IMG/VR virus record: IMGVR_UViG_3300027668_002455
Coordinates: 96,001 to 160,000 of that record
DNA length: 64,000 nucleotides
DNA from: a virus
Strand: one strand, 5' to 3'
Both the position numbers and the translations under genes were made by a program. Shown piece after piece: positions 5,471 to 58,039 of the stretch (positions are counted from its first letter, which is position 1; each line of letters begins with the position of its first letter). The notes under the pieces are model-generated. The model was not told the DNA's origin. It saw nothing but the letters and a program-made list of their open reading frames with translations, and ran no database searches.

Positions 5471-6655
5471 ATGCACCTTGTTGAAACATATGCTTTAAAC
5501 TGTGGCCTTAAAATAGATAAGCCATATATTATCGAAAAATTTTTTCCATTAGACACGGAAAGATTTATCACGTTGCACCCGAACAGTAAATACCCCTCAA
5601 AATGCTACGACTACTGGCAGGACGTGGTGGATATCTTGCTTCCGGTGTTGGAAAAAGAAGACATTAAAATTCTACAGATAGGCGTTAAAGAGGATATACC
5701 CCTTAGGGGGTGCTTGCACTCTCAGGGGCAAGCAAATCTAAATCAAACTGCTTATTTTTTATCGAAATGCATGCTTCATCTTGGGGTAGATAGCTTTCCT
5801 GCCCATGTGGCATCTGGATTTGATAAAAAAATAGTGTGCCTTTACTCTAATAATTATGCTGCCAACTGCAGCCCGTACTGGAGCCGACAAGAAGACATAG
5901 CTCTCTTTGAACCTCTTCGAGAAAATGGAGAAAAACCTTCTTTTTCTGCCGAGGAAGACCCTAAGAGCATAAACGAATTTAACCCAGAAGATATTACTGA
6001 AGCGGTTTTAAATCTTTTAAATATTAAAAGTAATAAAAATTTAAAAACGATCAGAAAGGGGTCCTTTTATAATCATTCGATAGTAGAACTGGTACCGGAC
6101 TGCGTAGCTAATATAAGCTCAATGAATATTGAGTCTATCATTGTAAGGATGGATTTAGAATTTAATGAGGAGGCGTTAGCCACCCAGCTTTCGATGGGAA
6201 AATGCTCCATCATTACCACAAAACCCATAAAATTTGAGATTTTAAATCAATTTAAAGAAAATATAAAAGAATTTGTATATTTTGTAGAAGAGGATCATGA
6301 TCCGACATTTATATCAGAGGTGGTAAAAATTGGTTTCCCAGTTATTTTGATGAGCGAGATGGAGGAGAAAAAGATCGAAGAAGCTAAAATTCATTATATG
6401 GATTTTGGTGTCATTCAAATCCCGCCCACGGCTCTTGAGGAAGACATTCAAGAAATAAAAAACCAAAAAGATAAAAATCTTTTTTATAAATCCAAAAGAG
6501 TATTAATTAGCAAGGGAAAAACTTATAAATCTGAAGCCGCATGGAAAAAGGGAGTCCCCAGTGATCCAAATGACCCCTCTCCGCTGCCTATTATTGATAG
6601 CCCTGAATTCTGGGAAGCTCTGGATGAATATTACATTCTAGCAAAGAAAACTTGA
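5471..6655 (+). CDS. GT9 (heptosyltransferase-like) C-terminal domain plus an unknown domain
   Basis: HLVETY linker, ITLHPNSKYPSKCY, ILQIG, LNQTAYFL, HLGVDSFPAHVASGFDKKIVCLY (GT9 DS..H.A motif). Confidence 0.8.
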   Translation: MHLVETYALNCGLKIDKPYIIEKFFPLDTERFITLHPNSKYPSKCYDYWQDVVDILLPVLEKEDIKILQIGVKEDIPLRGCLHSQGQANLNQTAYFLSKCMLHLGVDSFPAHVASGFDKKIVCLYSNNYAANCSPYWSRQEDIALFEPLRENGEKPSFSAEEDPKSINEFNPEDITEAVLNLLNIKSNKNLKTIRKGSFYNHSIVELVPDCVANISSMNIESIIVRMDLEFNEEALATQLSMGKCSIITTKPIKFEILNQFKENIKEFVYFVEEDHDPTFISEVVKIGFPVILMSEMEEKKIEEAKIHYMDFGVIQIPPTALEEDIQEIKNQKDKNLFYKSKRVLISKGKTYKSEAAWKKGVPSDPNDPSPLPIIDSPEFWEALDEYYILAKKT

Positions 6656-6680
6656 CAAAGAGATTAAAAAGAGCTACCCT
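6652..6680 (+). promoter_or_regulatory. sigma70-type promoter, probably giving a leaderless mRNA
   Basis: TTGACA (6652-6657), 17 nt, TACCCT (6675-6680). ATG at 6687 follows after 6 nt. Confidence 0.55.
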
Positions 6681-6686
6681 TTGTAT

Positions 6687-7421
6687 ATGGTAGCTAAGAA
6701 AAAATCAAAGTGTACTCCTCCGAAACTTATTACACGCAATGAGTATGGCTTAATTGAAGACGTTGATTACATTTTCAATGAGGATGGTTTTATCGATTGG
6801 CGCTCGATGCTAAAAGACAAATGGCTTTATCCCAATCCAAGCAAAAAACTTAATACAAGTGAAGTTTCTAAGCTTCAAGACCGTGACCTTTGCATCCTTT
6901 TAGGCGGCATAAAAGAACTTGCCCAGATTCGTGGCTTCACGAATGTAAGATATTCCCTCCATAGCCCCTCCTCGGATTATGTGGTTGCTTCTTGTGAAAT
7001 AACTTGGATTCCAAATTATGAGACCGAAGGTAGCGACGTCGTATTTACATCCGTAGGAGATGCTGGACCACATAATACTCACGGCTTTGGTCAGAGTTTC
7101 CTTGGGCCTATCGCGGAGAACAGAGCTTTTGTTCGCTGCGTTCGTAACTTTCTAAAAATTAATGTTGTCGCCCAAGACGAGATTGCAGTTAATCCAACGG
7201 CCCCACAAAGAGCCCAAGCGGAGACTACAACTATAGACATTTCTGATCCAAAAGCCCTTCTGTCTAAGCTTATGGGTGAAAAAAATATCAATTTCACCCA
7301 AATAAAAACAAAACTAGAAAAAGAAGATTACCCTAACGCAGAAGACTTTTCCTCAGTAAGTGATATTCCCAATATCAAGATATTTGAATTATTAGATAGA
7401 ATCCAAAAAATTAAGATTTAG
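6687..7421 (+). CDS. Putative single-strand annealing protein (Rad52/Sak-like)
   Basis: VVASCEITW...FTSVGDA...IAENRAFVRCVRNFLKINVVAQDEI matches the AE.RA..R..R helix of Rad52-superfamily annealases. ATG 6687 preferred over TTG 6681. Confidence 0.55.
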   Translation: MVAKKKSKCTPPKLITRNEYGLIEDVDYIFNEDGFIDWRSMLKDKWLYPNPSKKLNTSEVSKLQDRDLCILLGGIKELAQIRGFTNVRYSLHSPSSDYVVASCEITWIPNYETEGSDVVFTSVGDAGPHNTHGFGQSFLGPIAENRAFVRCVRNFLKINVVAQDEIAVNPTAPQRAQAETTTIDISDPKALLSKLMGEKNINFTQIKTKLEKEDYPNAEDFSSVSDIPNIKIFELLDRIQKIKI

Positions 7422-9476: not shown

Positions 9477-12400
9477 TTAAGAAGCCCCCGTTATACAAAT
9501 ACCTGAATCATACATTAATTCTATGCTTACTGACCCAAAATTTCTAAGTTCTTCACAAGGATAAATTTTAAAAAGCTGAACTTGGCTTCCCACGTCGATA
9601 TATCCTCCATCACCTGTGTAAACGCTGTTAAAGTGCCAGCCGGTTATAGTTTCAGTCGTTTGAGTCATGGCATTGGGGTCATGACTAGGTATCACAGTTG
9701 TTTGGGGAATAAATACGCCGCTATCCATATGACACTCGGCACTTGCATCGGAGTCAGCAATAAATTTAATCCCTGTAACATTGAGTGCATTTCGACCACT
9801 AATATGTAACTGCACACCCCCGTCGCCTCGAGTTGGGGTAACCCCTATCATAACTGGAATTCTACCCGATATTGTAGTTTGGTCTCCTGTAATTTTACTT
9901 ACATTTTGAAGAGCATACGTTTCGCGAAGCTGGATGAAATCCTGTCTTAATAAATCTATATCCACACCAGACTCACTATTGTAGTCGTCAAAGGTATATC
10001 CCAATTCATTATTAAATATTTCATGACGTGAAATTAAGAACGGATTACCGGTGCCTACCACCTGATCATTAAACGTTCCTGTGATAACTGTATATCCAGT
10101 CACATAACCTGCGCTTGCGTCAATGTGAGTTTTATCAAGTTCAAATTTACCAAAGTAAAAATACTTACTATAATTACCACTATTGTGTCTATCTATACCT
10201 ATTTCACTTATGGGCGGATAGGTATTATTTCTCATTGCGTGTGAATCACCAGTGTTCGCTACAAATTCTACCACTCCGTCTCCCGCAGTATAAGGTTGTA
10301 AACTATTCCCCGTAAACCCTAATAATGGAACTAGGTGAGAGGCATTAATTCCAGTTATCCTAAATTGACAGCCAACTTGAGTTTTAACAGTTTCAATACC
10401 AGAAATTGTTGGCATGGGGGTAAATTCCATTGGGGCTTTTATGGGTTGATCTGTATCATTCCATCCACTTATAATTGGTTTTCCCTTTACTAATTCATGA
10501 GGAACCTTTGCCTCAATACCTGTATTATCTATGTAAGTTATATCCATTCCTGATACGTAACGGGTTTGAACATAAGAACTACTCGATATGTCTTCACCTT
10601 GGTAAGCGGGGAACAGAACTATATCAACATCTGGTTCAAAGTTATTACCGGAGAAACTTACGGTTTCACCATAAACTCCAGTAAGAGGAATAAAGCTTCG
10701 AATACCACTAGTCAATATATTCAAGAGCCCTGTTGACATTTGCATTCCTGTTTGAGAAAATAACTGGATAGGGGTATAGGGTGCGCCGCTACTAGGAATA
10801 GAAAAGTTTATTCCCGTTGTGCCTACCCCTGTAAATGGAAGCAGCACCCTATCCTCAGAAAATCCTGAAAGATATAATTTTTGTGCAAGATCTAAAGATT
10901 GGCCATAAACCGAAACCACTTCGTTTGGATACCCAGAAATAGGTGTAAAACGAATGATCTTCATTTGTGGGGCTTCAATTTCAAAAGTACACCCCGTAAC
11001 TGGTGCAAAACCAGTTCCCACGATTGTAATGGGTCCGCTTACTGATTCTGCAGGGACAGTCACGTGTAGTGAAGTTTGATCAGACCTGAACCAGTCTTCT
11101 GCTGGGGTTCTATTGTCACCTACTAATACTCCAGTTATATCGAAGAAATACAACCCCTCTACAGTTAGGCTGTCTCCCCATGCTAATATCTTGCCTCCAG
11201 TGGGACAGCAATGAGAGTCAAAGAAGTAATGGGCATAATGAGGACCGTCTGCATGACACACAAGTTCATTTCGATGATGACAGGATACGAACGGGCGCGG
11301 TGCAACAAATACGCCGGTATATTTTGCATATCCAGTTTCTAGATTGAAACCATCCATTAGACCCTCATAACCAATAGCATCAAGTGAACCACCACCCAGA
11401 GTTAAGGGGCCGCTTTGAATATCAAGGCCGCTCCCGAGAGTAACACCAGCTATCCCTGTCGAGACATACGCTGACGTGCTATACTCTAGAGCTATACCAC
11501 TATAATTAATCATCCCCGCAAAATATCCATTAACATAAGCTTTGACATCTCTATCCTGCCTTGTGAAAGCTACGTGATTCCAATCGCCAGAGTTCCAATA
11601 CCCAAAATATGACCCTGAACTTTGAGTAGAGTTAGTTGTAAAGGCAAATAGTCTATCAGTGGGAATGCCGGGACTAAACTCACCACTACTCCCAGTGGTA
11701 TAATCTGGCCTTAGTCCGGTTATTCTACCCCCGTTAAAAAGATCTATACCAAGTGCTTGTTCGCCGTCGCCGCCTGAAAGGAAGAAGTTAAAGCCACTAC
11801 CTGTTGTTCCGAAGCTTAAAAGAGTTTGTCGTTTAATTCCGTTATCAACTGGGGCTCCGGTTAGAGTGGTAGAATAGGCCGTGCCGCTCGGTTTAATCCA
11901 CATCTCTGCGGTAAAGTCTTCAACTCCCAATGTTATATTTTGAGCAACAAGGGTATTTGCGCGGTTATAAGTCCTACTGCCAGTAGGAAATCTTAGGGCG
12001 TAAGTTCCAAACTTTCCTTCTCCAGTAGCAAATTCAATATTATTTGCAGGAGAACTCACCGAAGTAGTTGTAAACACGCGGGCGTATTGACTATCTCCCG
12101 TTATACCGTCAGCAATTATATTGCTCGGATCGCTCGGGATTTCAAAATTTAACATGGCATCCGTATAAACACCGCTGGTGATGGCACTTGCCGGCTTTGT
12201 GTATTTCCCATTATAGGGGGAAAATACTGCTCTTTTTGTTACATTGATTTCATCAATATACACTCTTTCACCAAGATCACTATTTAGCCAACCACTGTCG
12301 TAAGTTCCCGTTTTGGGAAGACTAGTATACTTTGATCCGCTTGAAATTATAAATTGGTCAACCTGCCCATGATAACTAACCAGTGGGCACTCCTTGAAGA

Positions 12401-20205: not shown

Positions 20206-20736
20206 ATGGCATCAATATATGACACTATAGCTCGGTGGTACACAGAAAATACTTATGTAAAAAACCACATTGTAGAATGGCCAGAGAATTCAAATGATTA
20301 CTGGTACTCTCTAGAAGATAGTAATAAGAGCAACGAGCCGAGCATCGGATCGCCAGTTTGGGGCGGATTCGGGACTACGGACATCCTTGGTATAACAAAG
20401 CCACAATTCTTTTGGCCCTGCTCCTATAACCAAAGTACGTCAATTTCACCTCGTGTTTTAACCATTCGATATGGTGACGGATATACCCAAAGAATTCCTG
20501 ATGGTATTAATAACAATCTATTAAATTTAGAGTTGTCTTTTGATGGGAGAGATGAACAAGAAACTTTAGCTATTATCCATTTTTTAAACGTACGTCGAGC
20601 CTCAGAGGCTTTTCTTTATACTCCACCAGCGCCCTTTGCAACGGAAAGGCTCTTCGTATGCAAAAAAATAACTTCAGCAGTAATCTTTCGCGATAATTTT
20701 AATATAAAAGTTTCTTTTGAAGAAGTTCCGGATTAG
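20206..20736 (+). CDS. Distal tail protein, lambda gpM-like
   Basis: PRVLTIRYGDGYTQRIPDGINN...IIHFL...AFLYTPP...VSFEEV. Confidence 0.9.
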   Translation: MASIYDTIARWYTENTYVKNHIVEWPENSNDYWYSLEDSNKSNEPSIGSPVWGGFGTTDILGITKPQFFWPCSYNQSTSISPRVLTIRYGDGYTQRIPDGINNNLLNLELSFDGRDEQETLAIIHFLNVRRASEAFLYTPPAPFATERLFVCKKITSAVIFRDNFNIKVSFEEVPD

Positions 20737-20740
20737 CATT

Positions 20741-21949
20741 ATGGCTGAAGAATTTGTTAATCCTAAAAATGATAGCGGTGGCGCGGTGATTTCAAAATCA
20801 CAGGCGCAAACGGCCATGAAGAACTTGCAGGCGGAAGCCACCTCTTTATCGCCCACTGCTTTAATAGAATTATTTGAAATAGATTTAAGTGATATACTTA
20901 GTCCTGATAAACTAATAGATCGAGAAGAATTTAATGCATTAAATGTATTTCTGGGAGGCTCGCTAGAAGTGAATATACATAATCCCGAAATAAATTTATT
21001 TAGATTTCATAATAACTTAAAATTAATTTCAAGAAATATTTGGTTTCAAGATAACCTATATAAAGCTATACCCATACAAGCGGATGGCTTTGAAATGAAC
21101 TCTAATGGTGTAGCCGCTACCCCCAAGCTAAGCTTAAGTGTTAGCACGGAAAAAAGTCCACCTCAATTTGCTATTTTTAAACATCTTCTTAAAGATCTTA
21201 ATGATCTAGTGGGCGCTCGGGTAAACCGTATAAGAACTTTTGCAAAGTTTTTAGATTATAAAAATTGGTATGAATTAAAAGCAGACGGAACTCCCGATCT
21301 AAATAAAAGACTATATGAAGATATTCCTAAGAATATTGCTCCAGATGAAGGCTCTTATTTCCCCCCGGATGTTTTTTATATAGATAGAAAATCACACGAA
21401 GATAAATCATCTATCCAATTTGAATTAGCTTCTTTTATTAATTTTGAAGAGCTTCAAATTCCACAAAGAATTTTTAACGTGACCCGATGTCCATGGACGT
21501 ACCGGGGACAGGGGTGTACTTACGAGTATTCCAGCATGGTAAGGGCACAACGAACTTCAGAGCCATTTCAGATGTTTTACAAGACGATGATACCAACAAA
21601 CGCTCCTCCTATAGCTACAGAAAATAATGAAACTATTTCAAGCATTGTAGAGGGATACACCCCCGAAACAACAAATACCCCCGTGCCGTGGGAGCCGGCT
21701 CTTAAATATCCCAAAAAAAGCACTGTCTATGTAACCCATAACAAAATAAATTATTATTTTGTTTCGTCCGCAGATGTACCCGAAAACACACCACCCCCTG
21801 ATAAAGATTATTGGGTAGCAGATGTGTGTGCAAAAGATCTGGGGGCATGTAAGTTAAGGTGGGACAAGAAACTCAACACTGCCCTACAAGGAAGCCCATA
21901 TGGCGCCGCAATTCCTTTTGGCGGTTTTCCAGCAATTAAGCGTCAGTAA
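20741..21949 (+). CDS. Tail tip protein, lambda gpL-like
   Basis: LIELFEIDL, PIQADGFE, GARVNRIRTFAKFLD, CPWTYRGQGCTY, DVCAKDLGACKLRW, PFGGFP (four Cys of the gpL Fe-S cluster). Start at ATG 20741. Confidence 0.92.
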   Translation: MAEEFVNPKNDSGGAVISKSQAQTAMKNLQAEATSLSPTALIELFEIDLSDILSPDKLIDREEFNALNVFLGGSLEVNIHNPEINLFRFHNNLKLISRNIWFQDNLYKAIPIQADGFEMNSNGVAATPKLSLSVSTEKSPPQFAIFKHLLKDLNDLVGARVNRIRTFAKFLDYKNWYELKADGTPDLNKRLYEDIPKNIAPDEGSYFPPDVFYIDRKSHEDKSSIQFELASFINFEELQIPQRIFNVTRCPWTYRGQGCTYEYSSMVRAQRTSEPFQMFYKTMIPTNAPPIATENNETISSIVEGYTPETTNTPVPWEPALKYPKKSTVYVTHNKINYYFVSSADVPENTPPPDKDYWVADVCAKDLGACKLRWDKKLNTALQGSPYGAAIPFGGFPAIKRQ

Positions 21950-21950
21950 A

Positions 21951-22703
21951 ATGATACTCACAAAAAAAAATAAAGAGAAAATAAAAAAACATGCCCGCGA
22001 GGAAAGCCCCCGGGAATGTTGCGGGGTATTAGTGTCTACTAACAAGGGTACTGAAGCGCACCCGTGCATTAATACCTCTTCTTTGCCTGAGTCTAATTTT
22101 AGAGTTTCTCCACGAGATTATATAAAATTTTCTAATTATGGAAAAATAGAAGCCATCTATCATTCTCACCCGTCAGGGAAAGGAGGCTTCTCCTTGGGAG
22201 ATCAACAAAATTATACAGTAAATAAAGAAAGATTTATATTATATAATATAGAAAGTGATGAATTTTTTGATTCACTAGAAGAAGGGGCATCTCCTTACTT
22301 AGGGAGAGACTTCGAACTTGGAAAAACGGATTGTATAAATATAGTTATAGACTATTATTTAAATGAACTTAAAATAAAAAGCAACTACGACGAATGTTGG
22401 CCCGGACCAAAACACTATATTAAGAAAAACGGTTCCTCCAATGTAAAAAAAGTTGTTCGTTCAATTGAAAAAGTATGGAGTGTAGGACGTATTAAAAAAT
22501 CAGAAACTCCGCGCAAACATGATATTATTTTGTATAAGGCTGACGGCATAAGGTCGGAAGTAGGGCTGCATTTAGGCGTTTGTATAGGCCACGGAAAAAT
22601 TATTATTCAACCAGTTGATAAAAAATCATGCCTAATTGATTATGAAGGATTTCTAAAGAAAAAAACAATTATGATATTTAGACCAAATTCTGCAAATGAA
22701 TAA
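21951..22703 (+). CDS. Tail assembly protein, lambda gpK-like (JAB/MPN plus NlpC/P60)
   Basis: PRECCG, IYHSHP...S.GD, YLGRDFELGKTDC, HLGVCIG. Start at ATG 21951. Confidence 0.9.
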   Translation: MILTKKNKEKIKKHAREESPRECCGVLVSTNKGTEAHPCINTSSLPESNFRVSPRDYIKFSNYGKIEAIYHSHPSGKGGFSLGDQQNYTVNKERFILYNIESDEFFDSLEEGASPYLGRDFELGKTDCINIVIDYYLNELKIKSNYDECWPGPKHYIKKNGSSNVKKVVRSIEKVWSVGRIKKSETPRKHDIILYKADGIRSEVGLHLGVCIGHGKIIIQPVDKKSCLIDYEGFLKKKTIMIFRPNSANE

Positions 22704-50221: not shown

Positions 50222-51343
50222 TTAGTTGTTATCAACAGTGACACCAACCACAGCGCGAGAATCGATACAAACACGACCCTCCTCGAGATAACCGTAGAAG
50301 CCAGTCTTTTCTTGACGGGCAACAAACTGATCATCAGGAATCGCAGTGAAGGTGCTTCCACCGCCGTCTTGACGAGCAATCGGACGAATGAAGGCCTCAC
50401 GACCCATGTCAACTCCAACGAGAATTTCGTCAGTAGCTGCACTCCAGTTACCACTTGATCCAGCACCCGGAATAGTTACGCCAGAACCACTAACCATCTC
50501 GTCAAAGAGGGTGTTGTACTTCTTGCCAATTCCAAGTTCGAGAAGCTCATGCAACACGATACCAAAGATTTCTTGCATACCAGAGGCACGGAAGATTTCT
50601 TCACGAATGGTGTAGGGAAGAGCAACAGGACCAGCGCTAAGACTACCTGTAGTATTAACAGGGTTGTAAGCGAAGCCGCGTACATATCCCATAATCTCAG
50701 GACTCACGAATAGATCCGTCACGCCCTTGCTGTCCCAATCAGAGGGGGTACCGTTAGCAAAAGAGGTATTAATTCTTTTAGCGCGGGTCATCAAGGTAGA
50801 TAGATCACCGGGTTTAAACGAGCTATTTGCATCAGCGCCAACAACATGTGTTAAACCGTTCGTGCTGGCCTCAGCCAACGCCTTAAGGATAACGGCCCAA
50901 GCATTGCGCTCTTGCTTAACAAGAACTTCTTGCGCCATTCTTTCAACAGCCTTGCTAACCACGTCCAAACGACCACGACGAGCGTAGCGTTTGAGGAAGC
51001 TAACTGCACTGTCCAAACGATAAGTGGCAATCTTCATTTCTGAGAGACCGCTTACCTGACTAGTGGGAAGACCACCGGCTACCGCTTGGGACCAAACACT
51101 GACGTAATCTACGCCCGCGTCATAAAAGAGGTCCAACGGAATGCTGGGGCTATCATCTTCATCATACAGACTATCATGATAAATCATGCCAGCTGTACCA
51201 GCTTGAGATAGTACCTTCTGAGCGACGGGTGCGATAAAAGCGGCGAACGCTTCAGCAGCCTGTGCTTGCTCCAGCGGGTTCTTGGAACCCAAAGCTTTGA
51301 TAAGCTCTACCTGTTCTGGTGTTTCTTTTAATTTTAATTTCAT
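50222..51343 (-). CDS. Major capsid protein (HK97 fold)
   Basis: 373 aa, after protease/scaffold and decoration genes. Spine helix LDVVSKAVERMAQEVLVKQERNAW, ending GFYGYLEEGRVCIDSRAV. Strong AGGAG SD and downstream terminator. Confidence 0.85.
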   Translation of the reverse strand: MKLKLKETPEQVELIKALGSKNPLEQAQAAEAFAAFIAPVAQKVLSQAGTAGMIYHDSLYDEDDSPSIPLDLFYDAGVDYVSVWSQAVAGGLPTSQVSGLSEMKIATYRLDSAVSFLKRYARRGRLDVVSKAVERMAQEVLVKQERNAWAVILKALAEASTNGLTHVVGADANSSFKPGDLSTLMTRAKRINTSFANGTPSDWDSKGVTDLFVSPEIMGYVRGFAYNPVNTTGSLSAGPVALPYTIREEIFRASGMQEIFGIVLHELLELGIGKKYNTLFDEMVSGSGVTIPGAGSSGNWSAATDEILVGVDMGREAFIRPIARQDGGGSTFTAIPDDQFVARQEKTGFYGYLEEGRVCIDSRAVVGVTVDNN

Positions 51344-51371: not shown

Positions 51372-51947
51372 TTACAGTTCGAGCTTGAGCATGATAAGAC
51401 CATCGCTGGAATTACCACCTAATGCCATACCAACCTTTGTTGATTTTGCAATGTGAGCAGCACTCGTTGAGAGTTCTCCATCACCAGCAGCATAAACTGC
51501 AAGCCCGGGGGTAACAGCATCAGCCTTAAGGGTCGCTCCGCTATAAAGCACAATTCCGCGTGTAAGGACGGGGCAGGCTTGTCCGCTGATTACCCAGTCA
51601 TTCTCCGCAGCTTTACGGGGATGATAGAGCAGCTTCTCGCCGTTCTCGTCAGTTTCACGCACATCATATAAAAGCATACCAAGTGGGATATCTTTCACGC
51701 CAGCTGAGCCTGAACCACAAGCAACAACTTGAGCCTGAGTCCGATATCGTTGGGACACTGTGTTTCCATACGCATTTCCTGCAGCACCAAACATTTCCAC
51801 TGGATCGGCTGCACCGGCTTGGAAGCCAGTAGCAGTAGCGATTTTTACCATCAACCCTTTGGTTGCTGGAACCGCTCCGCTCCACGAAAATAAATTGATC
51901 ACATCATGCGGATCATAATCATGTAATGGTTTTAATGTAGTAGCCAT
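51372..51947 (-). CDS. Capsid decoration/cement protein
   Basis: PLGMLL...GQACPVLTRG...PGLAVYAAGDGEL...KVGMALG beta-tulip-like pattern. Sits between scaffold and capsid; AGGAG SD. Confidence 0.7.
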   Translation of the reverse strand: MATTLKPLHDYDPHDVINLFSWSGAVPATKGLMVKIATATGFQAGAADPVEMFGAAGNAYGNTVSQRYRTQAQVVACGSGSAGVKDIPLGMLLYDVRETDENGEKLLYHPRKAAENDWVISGQACPVLTRGIVLYSGATLKADAVTPGLAVYAAGDGELSTSAAHIAKSTKVGMALGGNSSDGLIMLKLEL

Positions 51948-51971: not shown

Positions 51972-52622
51972 TTATCTTAATTCAAATTGATCCAAATCGA
52001 AAGCACTTTTGTACTTTTCAAAAATGGTAGGTTCAGCAGCTTCCATGACATTGGGAATATCAGCCTCTTGAGGCTCAGAGTTCTCAATAGCCTCTTCGAC
52101 TACATCTTTAGCAGAAGCTTCAACCGCCTCTTGCGACTCTTGAGCCGCGGCAGCTTCTTCTTCTGCTTTTTTCTGTTCCTCCATCGCCTCAACGATCTCG
52201 CGGCGCTTAGTTTTCATAAGCACGTTAAGTTTGTCTTGGTATGAAGAAAAGTCTTCGTCACCCATGTCTTTAATGTCAGCGGCGATAAGCTCGCGCTCTT
52301 CATCCTCAAGGACAAACTCCTCATCCATTAGAGACATGCGTTGTGTAAACTGCTCTTCCGATTCCTTGGCAGCCTTTTCGGCTTCCAATTTGTGGAGGAC
52401 AGTTTGTACTCTATCGAGGGACTCACGTACTTCGGCGTGTTCCTTTTCCAAGGCTTCGTGCTTTTCATTGGCTTGTGTTAGCTCAGAGTCGAATCTCTTC
52501 TTTTCTGTGCTAAATTGTTCCGAAGCCGATTTAAGCTGCTCTTGAATAAAGTCACTTACGGCAGAAGCTTCAAGTACCTTGACGCTTTCTTCGGTAATAT
52601 CTTCAAGTTTTGTAATTTTCAT
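51972..52622 (-). CDS. Nested in-frame scaffolding protein (internal start MKITKLEDI)
   Basis: In-frame ATG after a low-complexity linker. ATGTAA motif at 52643-52648 at the late-promoter spacing. Confidence 0.55.
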   Translation of the reverse strand: MKITKLEDITEESVKVLEASAVSDFIQEQLKSASEQFSTEKKRFDSELTQANEKHEALEKEHAEVRESLDRVQTVLHKLEAEKAAKESEEQFTQRMSLMDEEFVLEDEERELIAADIKDMGDEDFSSYQDKLNVLMKTKRREIVEAMEEQKKAEEEAAAAQESQEAVEASAKDVVEEAIENSEPQEADIPNVMEAAEPTIFEKYKSAFDLDQFELR

Positions 52623-53456
52623 AGCTTTACTCGTATTGTTTTTTACATTATTATTTGGGGTTTGTGAAATACTTTCTTCACTAGTTTTAACTATTTTTTC
52701 TGTTTTTGGTGATTTGGTCTTATGAGTGCAAACCCCTTCGACTTCTGCCGCTGGAGCTTCCGTTAGACCAATGCCTAGCGGGATGACGTCATTGAACACC
52801 TGTCGATAGACCTTTCGGCCATCTTCCAGAGCCCCAGAGCCGCCAAGACCCTGTAAATTCTCACTTAATTCCTCAATTATCTCAGGGTTCTCGATGATTT
52901 GGGCGTCTTCAAGGTTTTTATTATTTCCTATTAGAACTGCAAGCTTGTATTCAGAGAATCCCAGTTCCCAGCTAGCAGAAATCTTATTGTAATTTTCATC
53001 TTCAGGATCGCTTGAATTTTCAATTAATTCTGCAAGATCCGTATTTACCACTTTCCAGATAACTCCACCCAAGGTGACATTAAATGGTCTTTTTATATCT
53101 TTTACCTGATCCTCTGTTAGGGGCTTGTCAGTTCCAAATTCACTAAATCCAGCTGTCAAAATCGTTCCGATTACACGACTACGATTATGTTCAATATTAA
53201 TTGGTTTATTAATAAAGTTTTTATAAATTTCTAATGCTGTCCCTGTATTAATTACATCCCCATTTTTATTAACACGATTAGCCACGAAAGCATTGAAGGC
53301 CACAGGCAGTAAATCTACGTTAGATGCAGTATCAATCTCAGGGATAAAATCTCCGATATCCACCAAGCTAGCCATAGCTAGGTACTTGTCTTTCTCCTCC
53401 GAAACTAAAGGTTTGACTATCGAACTAAAACTTGTTTTATATTTAAATTCCTTCAT
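51972..53456 (-). CDS. Prohead protease fused to scaffolding domain
   Basis: NKNGDVI...FINKPINIEHNRSRVIGTI...ISASWELGF (His/Ser protease motifs), followed by an acidic coiled coil. Confidence 0.8.
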   Translation of the reverse strand: MKEFKYKTSFSSIVKPLVSEEKDKYLAMASLVDIGDFIPEIDTASNVDLLPVAFNAFVANRVNKNGDVINTGTALEIYKNFINKPINIEHNRSRVIGTILTAGFSEFGTDKPLTEDQVKDIKRPFNVTLGGVIWKVVNTDLAELIENSSDPEDENYNKISASWELGFSEYKLAVLIGNNKNLEDAQIIENPEIIEELSENLQGLGGSGALEDGRKVYRQVFNDVIPLGIGLTEAPAAEVEGVCTHKTKSPKTEKIVKTSEESISQTPNNNVKNNTSKAMKITKLEDITEESVKVLEASAVSDFIQEQLKSASEQFSTEKKRFDSELTQANEKHEALEKEHAEVRESLDRVQTVLHKLEAEKAAKESEEQFTQRMSLMDEEFVLEDEERELIAADIKDMGDEDFSSYQDKLNVLMKTKRREIVEAMEEQKKAEEEAAAAQESQEAVEASAKDVVEEAIENSEPQEADIPNVMEAAEPTIFEKYKSAFDLDQFELR

Positions 53457-53471
53457 AAAAAATTCCTTTCA

Positions 53472-53744
53472 CTAAGCAGAGTATGGGGATTTAGCTTCGT
53501 AATAAACGATGGACATCGCGGCGTGACCGGGCGTGAAGCTAGAACACATAATCGGTGGGTTTAAGGTAATAGAGCCGACAGGAGCTTCCAAGACTGCCAG
53601 ATCACCATCGTCCGCAAAAGTTAAAGTGCTTGCGGCGGAATGAGAATTGGTTACGGCGGTAACTAGAATCTTATAATCGGTGGCAGCCGAGACTTTAGCA
53701 ACTCCATTATTTGATATTTTATTGGCGAAATATTGTGCGGGCAT
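53472..53744 (-). CDS. Small beta-rich hypothetical protein, possibly virion
   Basis: 90-aa ORF with AAGGA SD in the head operon. Confidence 0.7.
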   Translation of the reverse strand: MPAQYFANKISNNGVAKVSAATDYKILVTAVTNSHSAASTLTFADDGDLAVLEAPVGSITLNPPIMCSSFTPGHAAMSIVYYEAKSPYSA

Positions 53745-53760
53745 ATTTTATTTTCCTTTT

Positions 53761-53874
53761 TTATTTACTCTCTTCTTGGTGACAGGCGCATTCGCAACCG
53801 ACATCTGTGCCATCACAGCATTCACATACTTGGTTGTTACAATTACATTCTTTATTTTCACATCCACATTCCAT
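53761..53874 (-). CDS. Metallothionein-like 37-aa Cys-rich peptide (absent from ORF track)
   Basis: Hand translation MECGCENKECNCNNQVCECCDGTDVGCECACHQEESK*: 10 Cys, 1 His, no aromatics. Fills the gap between two co-oriented genes. Confidence 0.75.
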   Translation of the reverse strand: MECGCENKECNCNNQVCECCDGTDVGCECACHQEESK

Positions 53875-53885
53875 AATTATTCTTT

Positions 53886-54509
53886 CTACCAGACAAAGCC
53901 AAGGGGTTTGTAGTCTTCTAAATACAATTCATCTATGTTTTCAAAATCATAATTTAATCCGTGTTCTTTTATATCCTCGGAAGCTTGTTCAAAGTCTCCA
54001 TCTCTAGGGGTTAATGCGCCAGTTAAATCAAACTCCTCTTCTTTAGTTGGCAACTCTTTGGAAAGAACAATATCCATTTGAAAAGTTGGTGATTTTGCTT
54101 TGGGGGTAAGCGAAGCTTTCTCTGCATTAATTTTTGATTTGTTACTTTTTATTTCCAAAAACATATTCACTCGAGCCAACGCCCATTGTCCCCTCGTTTT
54201 ACCTAGGGACTCAGAAGGTGAAAAAGCGTTTGCGCCTCCTCGGTAAACCGTTTTTAATTGGGACAAGGTGACTTTGTTAGAAGGGTATTTTTTATTGTGC
54301 CCTTTGAGTTTGCCCTTTAAGAGAAAAACAACCTTTGAAGAAAAAGCGATAGCTAGGTTGGTTTCACGAGTGGTCTCTGAAGGCTCAACCTCGGGAGAGA
54401 CAGAGACAAAAGTAGCCGACGCATTCTTATCGGCTGTAGACTTTTTTTCAGGTGCTCCAAAGTCTTCAAAGCCGAAATTCTGATTATTTAAGTTTATATC
54501 TTTAGCCAT
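53886..54509 (-). CDS. Hypothetical head-region protein with DUF5824-like helical motif
   Basis: LSQLKTVYRGGANAF...QWALARVNMFL. Confidence 0.5.
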   Translation of the reverse strand: MAKDINLNNQNFGFEDFGAPEKKSTADKNASATFVSVSPEVEPSETTRETNLAIAFSSKVVFLLKGKLKGHNKKYPSNKVTLSQLKTVYRGGANAFSPSESLGKTRGQWALARVNMFLEIKSNKSKINAEKASLTPKAKSPTFQMDIVLSKELPTKEEEFDLTGALTPRDGDFEQASEDIKEHGLNYDFENIDELYLEDYKPLGFVW

Positions 54510-54573: not shown

Positions 54574-54601
54574 AAAAAAGCTCACATTTTTAATGTGAGC
54601 T
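54574..54601 (-). terminator. Intrinsic terminator after the small lipoprotein gene
   Basis: AGCTCACATT-AAA-AATGTGAGCT followed by a T-run on the - strand. Confidence 0.8.
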
Positions 54602-54633: not shown

Positions 54634-54849
54634 TTATTCTTTATCAACCTTTAGAGTAGGCAGTGGGACATTAATATCCACGAGCGGTACGGTGACCGTA
54701 AGGGCCTCCTTGCTAACCGTAGCCCCTAAAACGGACTTATGGTTAGCTGCTCCTCCGACTGTTACTGAGGGTAGTTTCTGTGAAATAGCACAACCCATTG
54801 TAAAAGTGGTCATAAGTGCTCCGACTGCAATCAACTTAATAGTTTTCAT
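54634..54849 (-). CDS. Small lipoprotein
   Basis: Signal peptide II MKTIKLIAVGALMTTFTMG-C, followed by alternating beta strands. Confidence 0.75.
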   Translation of the reverse strand: MKTIKLIAVGALMTTFTMGCAISQKLPSVTVGGAANHKSVLGATVSKEALTVTVPLVDINVPLPTLKVDKE

Positions 54850-54920: not shown

Positions 54921-55424
54921 TTAGTTAGGTTTTATTAAAAAAATAATCTTCACTAAGGTTGAATCTCCCCAATAAGTAAGAATGTCAGAATCAACAGGGA
55001 AACACACCCAGTGGTAATAAATCGTATTTTTCTTTTTTATCAAAATAATAGATATATCGGTCTCTTTAAGTTGCTTAAAATTTTTAATCTTTTTAATTTG
55101 AAAGCCCCGAGACTCAAAATACCTAATAATTTCACTAGGCATTGTTATTTCCCTAGCTTTATAGGTAAAAACAGAAAGAAGGCTCCTAGCCCAGTTTCCG
55201 TGGTCTAATATCTCCTTACTGATGCTCGAACTAAAAACATTTCCCCCAAGGGCGTCGTGGGCTTTTCGGATAGCTATGGGGCCGCAACTATAAACATGAA
55301 GGGGGTCAAAACCGTTGGCCCTTTTTTCGCGCGCGAACTTACTCTCACTAAGGTTATATAGTGTGCCGCAGCCAACAGAAAAAAACAAAAGATTAAAAAT
55401 AAGAATGTTAATTACATTCTTCAC
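54921..55424 (-). CDS. Lipoprotein with peptidase C39-like (papain-fold) domain
   Basis: Lipobox FSVG-C; YSCGPIAI (catalytic Cys) and YYHWVCF (His). Confidence 0.65.
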   Translation of the reverse strand: MKNVINILIFNLLFFSVGCGTLYNLSESKFAREKRANGFDPLHVYSCGPIAIRKAHDALGGNVFSSSISKEILDHGNWARSLLSVFTYKAREITMPSEIIRYFESRGFQIKKIKNFKQLKETDISIILIKKKNTIYYHWVCFPVDSDILTYWGDSTLVKIIFLIKPN

Positions 55425-56848: not shown

Positions 56849-58039
56849 TTATTCTAAATCGCCAAGTTTTTTCAATTCTTCTAATTTGGCATGAGGTTTT
56901 TGTATTCCCCCAATTGCCGTGTAGACTGTTAGATCGGGTTTGTCCCCGCTATAAATTCCACGATGGACAACGCTCCCCTTTGTTAGCATGCGGGAGAATT
57001 GATCAAAAGCCCTATCAAGATTCTGTTGTGGTAATGTCTCTAAAATTTGTTTTCCGCCAACGATAACTACACCAGCAGAGTTACCACTACTTAAATCAAC
57101 ACCACCAGAAAGCATGTTGTTTTTTAAATTATCTCTAACCACTTTGCTAATACTGGAGGGACCATCCCAGTCGCTAACGCCAGCGGCACCAAAAACAATT
57201 AACCCAGTATCTAACACCTGTTTATAGTCATTGGAATCAAAAGCAGAATAGCTGCTATTTTTAGCTGCGGTATGATTAAATAGGTGAAATAATCCCGCAA
57301 TACTCATGTTAGCGGTTTCCCAGAAAGTCCCCACTGGTAACCCCGGATAAAGAGTATTGATTTTTTCGTTGTCTAGTATTATTAGAGGAGATACTATTCC
57401 GCGCTCAACCAGATCCCAAACCTTAACCAAGGTGGCATAAGCATTTGCATTAACCTTTTTTCCTTCGGAATGTTTTGGTAATGCAAGCACAACGCCTACT
57501 TTATCAGTGGGAGCCTTAATGGTCCGTTGCATTTCTTGGGCGGTCTCAACCAATGGACAAACAGTTCCTGCACCCGAGCCACCGCCAGCCCCAGCACAAA
57601 CAAAAATTCTATCTACTGACTCCCCAAAAGAATCATACATGAAATCGAGAACATCTTCTCTATGATCAGTATATAGTCTTTCAGCAATATCGGGGTTTTT
57701 TCCAGCCCCTCCATTACCAATACAGAGTTTATTATCAAGATTAATTGTATTTAAATCCTGCTGAGCTGTGTTAAGAACGGCAATTTTTCTATAGCCTAAT
57801 TTATGAAAAGATTCTGCAATTCTAGAGCCTCCCTGCCCCGCACCGATAAAAGCAAAGTTAAAAGCGACATTGCAATTATCCTTATTTTTATCTTCCTTTT
57901 CCGCCACCACTTTAGGCATCGGGATAGGAATTTCAGGCATAGAAATATCGACACTAGAATCTGTATTCATATAAGAATCTAGATCATCAACGGGGGGTTG
58001 ATTATCTGGCGTGGGAGAATTTAGATTTTCAGTATTCAT
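56849..58039 (-). CDS. Tubulin/FtsZ-superfamily GTPase (TubZ/PhuZ/CetZ-like)
   Basis: IGAGQGGSRIA (T1), LNTAQQDL, GGAGKNP (T3), AGAGGGSGAG (T4 signature), LPKHSEG, ILDNE, FDSND (T7). Confidence 0.92.
   Translation of the reverse strand: MNTENLNSPTPDNQPPVDDLDSYMNTDSSVDISMPEIPIPMPKVVAEKEDKNKDNCNVAFNFAFIGAGQGGSRIAESFHKLGYRKIAVLNTAQQDLNTINLDNKLCIGNGGAGKNPDIAERLYTDHREDVLDFMYDSFGESVDRIFVCAGAGGGSGAGTVCPLVETAQEMQRTIKAPTDKVGVVLALPKHSEGKKVNANAYATLVKVWDLVERGIVSPLIILDNEKINTLYPGLPVGTFWETANMSIAGLFHLFNHTAAKNSSYSAFDSNDYKQVLDTGLIVFGAAGVSDWDGPSSISKVVRDNLKNNMLSGGVDLSSGNSAGVVIVGGKQILETLPQQNLDRAFDQFSRMLTKGSVVHRGIYSGDKPDLTVYTAIGGIQKPHAKLEELKKLGDLE

Follow-up and report, generated by a model that had tools for sequence, protein, structure and literature searches.

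A cysteine-cluster micro-gene in the head gene unit of a marine phage as a candidate metal-thiolate module

Upstream of the presumed prohead protease/scaffold gene of an uncultured marine long-tailed phage lies an ORF that is very short and very rich in cysteine codons. This locus raises three questions: whether the ORF is a gene at all, whether it belongs to the head-assembly genes among which it is found, and whether its product binds metal. The window, by which we mean the entire 64,000-nt stretch that was analysed (positions 96,001 to 160,000 of IMG/VR record IMGVR_UViG_3300027668_002455), also encodes a TP901-like tape measure (PF10145, E 2e-28). The features discussed below are collected in Table 1.

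Table 1. Features of the window referred to in the text, with positions counted from the first nucleotide of the window.
Feature	Positions	Strand	Basis or remark
37-codon Cys-cluster gene, stop codon included	53761..53874	minus	Translation; ATG at 53874, TAA at 53761-53763
11-nt spacer with purine-rich, weak Shine-Dalgarno-like stretch GAAAGAA	53875..53885	minus	Sequence; putative ribosome site
207-aa DUF5824-like gene	53886..54509	minus	Pfam PF19141 E 1.2e-4, below cut-off; first gene of the unit
Terminator-like hairpin with T-run	54579..54601	minus	End of the upstream lipoprotein genes; delimits the unit that contains the ORF
90-aa gene	53472..53744	minus	Second accessory gene of the slot; no family match
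494-aa protein, presumed prohead protease/scaffold fusion	51972..53456	minus	Right border of the slot; position and acidic coiled-coil C-terminus
191-aa protein	51372..51947	minus	Pfam PF23982 (minor capsid protein, XM1 gp53), weak match with E 4.8e-4, below cut-off
373-aa major capsid protein (Mu GpT-like / Phage_capsid_4-like)	50222..51343	minus	ESM Atlas features
Two lipoprotein genes	54634-54849 and 54921-55424	minus	Lipoboxes TMGC and SVGC; directly upstream of the head unit
Promoter-like site TTGACT-17-TATACT	54913-54885		By the lipoprotein genes
Tubulin/FtsZ-family GTPase	56849-58039	minus	PF00091 E 9e-11; upstream of small membrane and lipoprotein genes
Lambda-like tail-tip genes	20206-22703	plus	gpM-like (PF05939), gpL-like (PF05100) and JAB-domain gpK-like
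DnaE-type DNA polymerase III alpha subunit	90-2075	plus	Finger, HHH and OB domains; adjoined by sugar-modifying genes (epimerase/dehydratase, glycosyltransferases)

Coding status and conservation of the Cys-cluster gene

Translation of the minus strand yields a peptide of 37 residues (P0002) with 10 Cys (27%), one His and no Phe, Tyr or Trp, a mass of 4 kDa and a net charge of about -7. Its cysteines follow the pattern CxC-x4-CxC-x4-CxCC-x6-CxCxCH. This may be viewed as a series of four units of ~7 residues, each beginning with CxC. A sequence-only reading of this DNA, which named no strand, had described ten Cys in CxC-type groups without aromatic residues, set 11 nt after one stop codon and 16 nt before the next start codon, and both the translation and the stop and start positions bear this description out. 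The TAG of the upstream 207-aa gene occupies 53886-53888, 11 nt ahead of the ATG, and 16 nt separate the TAA from the ATG (53744) of the following 90-aa gene. The spacer reads AAGGAA in two related contigs (L089 and L163), which is a better Shine-Dalgarno-like match than the GAAAGAA of the window; other genes of the window use AGGAG- or AAGGA-type sites. The product carries no signal peptide, and upstream of the ATG its frame is open for just 18 codons, which lie inside the preceding gene; it is therefore predicted to be cytoplasmic.

A phmmer search against 1.84 billion representative proteins returned a single match, P0003, an orthologue of 37 aa with 83% identity, which is found on three ENA contigs and is called as a gene in ENA assemblies. 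Orthologues were also revealed by a degenerate-pattern scan in six marine metagenome contigs (L089, L091, L140, L159, L163 and L172), in which the ORF has the same position and the same spacers as in the window. The capsid genes of the orthologue-bearing contigs are 97-98% identical to that of the window, with L091 and L172 ending before this gene. Taken together, the window, the contigs and P0003 provide six distinct free-standing variants of the peptide, in which 10/10 Cys and the His are invariant. Only positions 2, 9, 16, 23, 25, 26, 28, 30, 36 and 37 vary, and the non-Cys residues kept in the orthologues are Asn14, Asp21, Gly22, Asp24 and the C-terminal HQEE.

Seven aligned orthologues exhibit 13 codons with synonymous variation only and 8 with non-synonymous variation. 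TGT and TGC are swapped at six of the ten Cys codons and Cys is lost at none, and in a subset of five sequences the third codon position accounts for 19 of the 28 variable sites. The pairwise dN/dS of the ORF is 0.03-0.10, compared with 0.02-0.09 for the capsid gene and mostly 0.1-0.4 (range 0.08-0.42) for the flanking accessory genes, and its synonymous sites are near saturation across the lineages compared. The pN/pS ratio is 0.11 in the Cys-cluster frame versus 1.6 and 2.4 in two open antisense frames. Because of the invariant Cys, the TGT/TGC swaps, the low dN/dS, the synteny and the lack of constraint in the other frames, the ORF is, on this comparative evidence, a genuine protein-coding gene in which strong purifying selection is confined to the Cys-cluster frame, and the same comparisons indicate that selection acts on the potential ligand set, i.e. 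the 10 Cys and the His. The sequence-only reading had looked to syntenic homologues with conserved Cys; six contigs and P0003 supply them with every Cys kept, and the ORF, far from being unconserved, is syntenic in all six contigs. What draws attention to this locus is a tiny gene, mostly missed by gene callers, that is under selection as strong as that of the capsid gene and holds 11 potential ligands in 37 residues.

Two other accounts of the locus were rejected. The plus-strand frame over the same positions, a hydrophobic 77-aa ORF unrelated to P0002, is unconstrained (pN/pS 1.6). Entry into the frame of the ORF from the 207-aa gene by programmed frameshifting is not supported either, as no slippery site is conserved and the ORF keeps its own ATG.

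The gene recurs in ocean metagenomes of several studies: marine sequencing runs of these studies contain the surrounding 1.2 kb, and the runs so listed include no RNA run. DNA contigs of runs X7 and X10 show no difference wherever they overlap it. Run X12 has five differences, and the three that were listed agree with known variants, namely two synonymous changes and Thr23Ala. A 38-nt piece that is 84% like window positions 53823-53860, with unrelated flanks, occurs in contigs of runs X7, X12 and X13; it may belong to a further Cys-rich gene or be due to chance. No match to the ORF was found among GenBank phages by blastn and tblastn, searches in which the low-complexity filter may mask the query, and a 46-aa extended query returned zero candidates in a homologous-protein search. 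A genome scan for the host matched only binned MAG contigs, whose taxonomy was inconsistent.

With regard to the core-pattern scan of IMG/VR, most matches were discarded as artefacts, being antisense frames of Ala-rich tape-measure genes. Frames of the form CSCCDxSDxDCDC, which mimic Cys-rich ORFs, were observed antisense to Ala-rich tape-measure-like genes in L208, L225, L229, L230, L234, L242, L245, L249, L251, L253 and L256. L081, from the first pattern scan, was discarded as a chance match.

The head gene unit and its variable slot

The genes follow the order 207-aa DUF5824-like gene, Cys-cluster ORF, 90-aa gene, 494-aa gene, 191-aa gene and 373-aa gene. The 207-aa gene forms the conserved left border of a slot and has homologues in 73 of 80 related loci, and the 494-aa gene is kept in all related loci. 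Neither a family match nor a PDB match was found for the 494-aa protein, whose role as protease/scaffold is presumed from gene order. The 90-aa gene is conserved in the same contigs as the ORF and also in L002 and L094, and an NCBIfam search of the genes neighbouring the ORF returned no family. The 373-aa protein has ESM Atlas feature scores of 0.96-0.99 to Mu GpT domain and major capsid protein clusters (PF25209) and 276 viral relatives; its AlphaFold2 model (pLDDT 42) was unusable.

The sequence-only reading had assigned the ORF to a head-assembly operon, which was only partly confirmed. The placement is supported because the 373-aa protein is Mu GpT-like, and no terminator was found from the 207-aa gene through to the capsid gene; the ORF is probably co-transcribed with the head genes, late in infection. 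In contrast, a role as a core head gene does not stand. In a survey of the 73 related IMG/VR loci that have both border genes, the slot was empty in 49, where the 207-aa gene abuts the 494-aa gene, and held inserts of >400 nt with varied content in 17. The closest IMG/VR relatives are among those with an empty slot, and the relatives L001 and L003 (capsid 82% identical) carry neither the ORF nor the 90-aa gene. Because the slot is empty in so many relatives, the closest ones included, the Cys-cluster ORF is, as judged from gene content, an accessory gene that does not belong to the head-assembly core.

The site where the DUF5824-like gene meets the presumed protease/scaffold gene (51972-54509; L001-L080) is a hot spot of gene gain and loss. 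In loci with a filled slot, its content may be a DUF5754-like protein (268-390 aa), a trypsin-like protease, small acidic proteins or the 90-aa gene.

No metal-homeostasis genes (transporter, metal sensor) were found in the neighbourhood of the ORF. The suggestion that its product might serve the Zn-, Fe- and Fe-S-dependent proteins of the window was not upheld, as nothing was found that connects the ORF to them. A related explanation is that the peptide, which is small and Cys-rich, is a RiPP precursor of the thioether or thiazole type, or an Fe-S carrier for the Fe-S tail-tip protein of the phage. The window does contain 2OG-Fe(II) oxygenase-like genes and a lambda gpL-like tail-tip protein (PF05100), a family known for its [4Fe-4S] cluster. 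However, the tail-tip genes, which encode the metal-dependent virion proteins that the sequence-only reading hinted at, are located 30 kb away on the opposite strand, no connection between them and the Cys-cluster gene was found, and the CxC spacing is not an Fe-S motif. Moreover, the peptide exhibits no leader/core architecture, and no radical-SAM, YcaO, lanthipeptide or other maturase is present among the window ORFs scanned with Pfam, which cover the small ORFs in part. We consider this explanation highly improbable.

Comparison with known metallothioneins and Cys-rich proteins

No family was found for P0002 in all of Pfam at E <= 10, PF02069 and the eukaryotic Metallothio_* families (PF00131 etc.) included, nor in PHROGs. 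Sequence and profile searches of the PDB gave chance-level matches only (PHD fingers, glucosidase II beta, sarafotoxin) and no match to solved metallothioneins, and no cellular homologue, MymT included, was present among the 1.84 billion representatives searched with phmmer. The ESM Atlas scores of P0002 were <= 0.86; the insect metallothionein cluster (PF02067) reached 0.81 at rank 12, below the lead threshold. AlphaFold2, run on an eight-sequence alignment, gave a pLDDT of 54.7 and no secondary structure, a result that is compatible with a metal-requiring fold and would be weak evidence for it.

Metallothioneins are operationally recognised as proteins below about 10 kDa with a high content of Cys in conserved CxC and CC motifs, few or no aromatic residues and much metal bound in metal-thiolate clusters. 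At the sequence level, P0002 matches this definition, as the sequence-only reading had claimed, since it is small, Cys-rich with CxC and CC, and devoid of aromatic residues. In an alignment-free comparison, it is similar to short single-domain metallothioneins, such as fungal Cu-thioneins and the mammalian alpha and beta domains, in its size and 27% Cys, as well as in its repeated CxC and one CC, the lack of aromatic residues and of predicted secondary structure, and an apparent repetition of CxC units. Its 11 potential ligands equal the number found in a four-metal cluster domain. Unlike these metallothioneins, P0002 is strongly acidic, has invariant Asn and Asp residues, is encoded in a phage late structural operon and is also found inserted into a larger protein; a sequence relationship to any Pfam family of metallothioneins or to a solved metallothionein is not detectable.

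With regard to bacterial metallothioneins, SmtA holds four Zn with a Cys9His2 ligand set, and the Pseudomonas protein PflQ2 MT has a Zn3Cys9His cluster (PMC7387436). P0002, in which metal binding is predicted, resembles SmtA/BmtA and the Pseudomonas proteins as a small Cys/His protein of the prokaryote world with a comparable number of ligands. The difference from cyanobacterial SmtA noted in the sequence-only reading was confirmed: P0002 has no PF02069 match, lacks the zinc-finger-like core of SmtA, with its aromatic residues and its two His ligands (0 aromatics, 1 His in P0002), and has no SmtB-type regulator nearby. It is also shorter, with 37 aa versus about 55-80 aa for bacterial metallothioneins, and published SmtA, Pseudomonas metallothioneins and MymT differ from it in length, His content and fold (PMC7387436). 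These sequence comparisons exclude membership in the known metallothionein families; in its chemistry, P0002 may reasonably be regarded as a candidate metallothionein-like peptide.

Phage "metallothionein" auxiliary genes have been annotated in virome surveys (PMC12917443 citing Huang et al. 2021; PMC13317609); these annotations rely on similarity to cellular genes, and the habitats are metal-rich. The Cys-cluster gene resembles them in being carried by a virus and proposed for metal handling, whereas its family has no cellular homologue among the representatives searched and stems from open-ocean metagenomes. To our knowledge, no phage metallothionein has been characterised so far.

Related phages also encode Cys-rich lipoproteins, which are similar to P0002 in phage group, accessory region and the skeleton CxC...CC[DE]xG...CxCxC followed by K/H. 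In contrast to P0002, they have a signal peptide and a lipobox and act outside the cytoplasm. Homology between the two was considered and found to be unsupported (hhalign probability 27%; none found by the module HMM). The members of this lipoprotein family are 45-50 aa long (L029 6414-6557, L009 6793-6945, L032 near 14091; proteins P0004-P0008) and share a layout of signal peptide, lipobox, CNWG and 8-10 further Cys ending in CxCxCK. The L009 lipoprotein gene is located in the same 207-aa/494-aa slot and adjoins a secreted trypsin-like protease.

These lipoproteins share a similar Cys pattern and must reach an oxidising compartment by export. By analogy, P0002 could be a disulfide-rich or redox-active peptide that does not bind metal. 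It might buffer thiols and ROS in the infected cell, or it might be a small piece associated with the virion, perhaps with an acidic Ca-binding loop, that forms a disulfide knot by oxidation after release into seawater. Its location in the head gene unit and the similarity of nine residues, CDCCDGTDE, to the LDLa-like Ca-loop CECCDGTD of glucosidase II beta speak for this alternative. However, the PDB matches have E values of about 1-10 for a resemblance over 9-14 residues, which is chance level, Ldl_recept_a gave no Pfam match, and P0002 has neither the six-Cys framework of LDLa nor its hydrophobic core residues. The peptide also lacks the signal peptide of the lipoproteins, to which its homology is undemonstrated. 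In general, CxC and CC spacings are typical of thiolate clusters and poor for disulfide knots, and ten cytoplasmic thiols are likelier to be metal-bound than disulfide-bonded. A disulfide or redox function therefore appears unlikely.

Free and fused forms of a putative metal-thiolate module

In sister phages, the same slot is occupied by a larger protein that contains the Cys module, an occurrence that the sequence-only reading had overlooked. L002 and its kin L082, L094, L129 and L137 (capsid about 79% identical) carry there a protein of 388-398 aa with an N-terminal match to phrog_7595 and a weak one to DUF5754. A 7-Cys version of the module, CxC-x4-CxCC-x6-CxC, lies in its interdomain linker (tblastn E 9e-6; HMM E 1e-10), whereas members of this carrier family in other related phages have no Cys insert. 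Across the sister phages, the DUF5754-like carriers with the module are 320-400 aa long. A region-restricted database search and a cluster listing gave ten distinct fused variants. Eight are of the 7-Cys type, in which all Cys are invariant and most residues between them vary; the other two have 10 Cys and the His, end in CxCxCH like P0002 and continue with a His/Met/Cys-rich stretch (P0013). The Cys module is retained even in carriers that lack the helical domain. In an alignment of free and fused forms (A1), the invariant columns are the seven Cys, Asn14, Asp21 and Asp24, the last of which is not strictly retained in the wider fused set. The free and fused forms thus belong to one module family. 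As far as the sequences tell, a metal-knot module that is self-contained would explain the fused occurrence no less well than a free "buffer" would, and the fused forms suggest a structural rather than a buffering role.

The free gene could also be an evolutionary leftover, i.e. a fragment of a DUF5754-like carrier reduced to its Cys-rich linker, perhaps translated but functionless. It occupies the exact slot of the 320-400-aa carrier, between the 207-aa and 90-aa genes, in a region prone to gain and loss. On the other hand, it has its own conserved ATG, stop codon and spacers, its dN/dS of 0.03-0.10 is held across lineages with near-saturated synonymous sites, and 11/11 ligand residues are kept, which is not expected of a dead fragment. 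A functionless remnant is therefore very unlikely.

We favour the view, with a probability of roughly 0.58, that the free peptide is a metal-thiolate cluster module which is autonomous, belongs to a new family restricted to phages and is encoded by an accessory late gene. This mechanism is proposed because the peptide has no signal peptide, is acidic, is under selection on its ligands and is tolerated both free and embedded in a larger protein. On its own, the acidic 37-residue chain would have no stable fold; it would fold only when its thiolates, together with the terminal His, enclose several metal ions in the manner of metallothioneins. From metallothionein chemistry, 11 ligands would be expected to bind about 3-4 Zn(II)/Cd(II) or 6-8 Cu(I). 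The gene would be transcribed late with the head genes from the variable accessory slot, and the module would be used either free, in the clade of the window's phage, or grafted into the DUF5754-like linker, in the sister clades, as a portable metal-knot domain. Possible roles would be a metal sink or metal hand-over in late infection, or a structural knot acting with the other proteins of the slot; we infer metal binding, stoichiometry and physiological role alike. A metal-buffer role for this putative metal binder is plausible but unsupported, and a structural or partner-binding role is equally possible.

The His/Met/Cys-rich stretch that follows the fused module of P0013 counts for the metal-thiolate reading. 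Several findings count against it: no Pfam family or solved metallothionein is matched and the ESM lead is weak, the charge of about -7 and the invariant Asn14 and Asp21 are untypical of classical metallothioneins, the Shine-Dalgarno site is weak, and neither a transporter nor a metal sensor is nearby.

A broader interpretation, which we put forward tentatively and regard as doubtful, is that of a phage-born metallothionein family without cellular ancestor, which marine siphophages deploy free or grafted and which captures or redistributes scarce or toxic Zn, Cd and Cu. If this were true, viral infection would be linked to ocean trace-metal cycling. If the module binds metal, it would represent a new metallothionein family and would imply that phages evolve their own metal-handling modules and graft them into proteins; it would also provide an easily synthesised 4-kDa peptide for direct tests of viral effects on marine trace metals. 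If it does not, the locus is still a clean case of a conserved micro-gene in a hypervariable head-operon slot.

Finally, given its small size, its density of Cys codons and the mere 16 nt that separate it from the following gene, the ORF could be regarded as a regulatory uORF or leader, in which ribosomes stalling at the Cys codons would sense cysteine or Cys-tRNA and tune the head genes downstream. Tiny Cys-only ORFs preceded by a Shine-Dalgarno site do occur in other phage contigs. However, no terminator/antiterminator is found downstream, the non-Cys residues Asn14, Asp21, Gly22, Asp24 and HQEE are conserved too, and the same module is present inside proteins of 320-400 aa, where a leader role is impossible. 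We find this explanation scarcely credible, and a metal-thiolate module remains the reading that we prefer.

The tiny ORFs of other contigs comprise 14-16 codons, nearly all for Cys, Asp or Gly, with the pattern MCxCCDCCDCxCxC, and were observed in L237 (about 7106-7156), L219 (about 6619-6669), L257 (about 1759-1803) and L248 (about 11530-11580). All four follow a strong Shine-Dalgarno-type AGGAG, which reads GGGAG in L248, and the contigs are AT-rich and belong to unrelated phages. These mini-ORFs may encode mini metal-binding peptides or Cys-sensing leader peptides.
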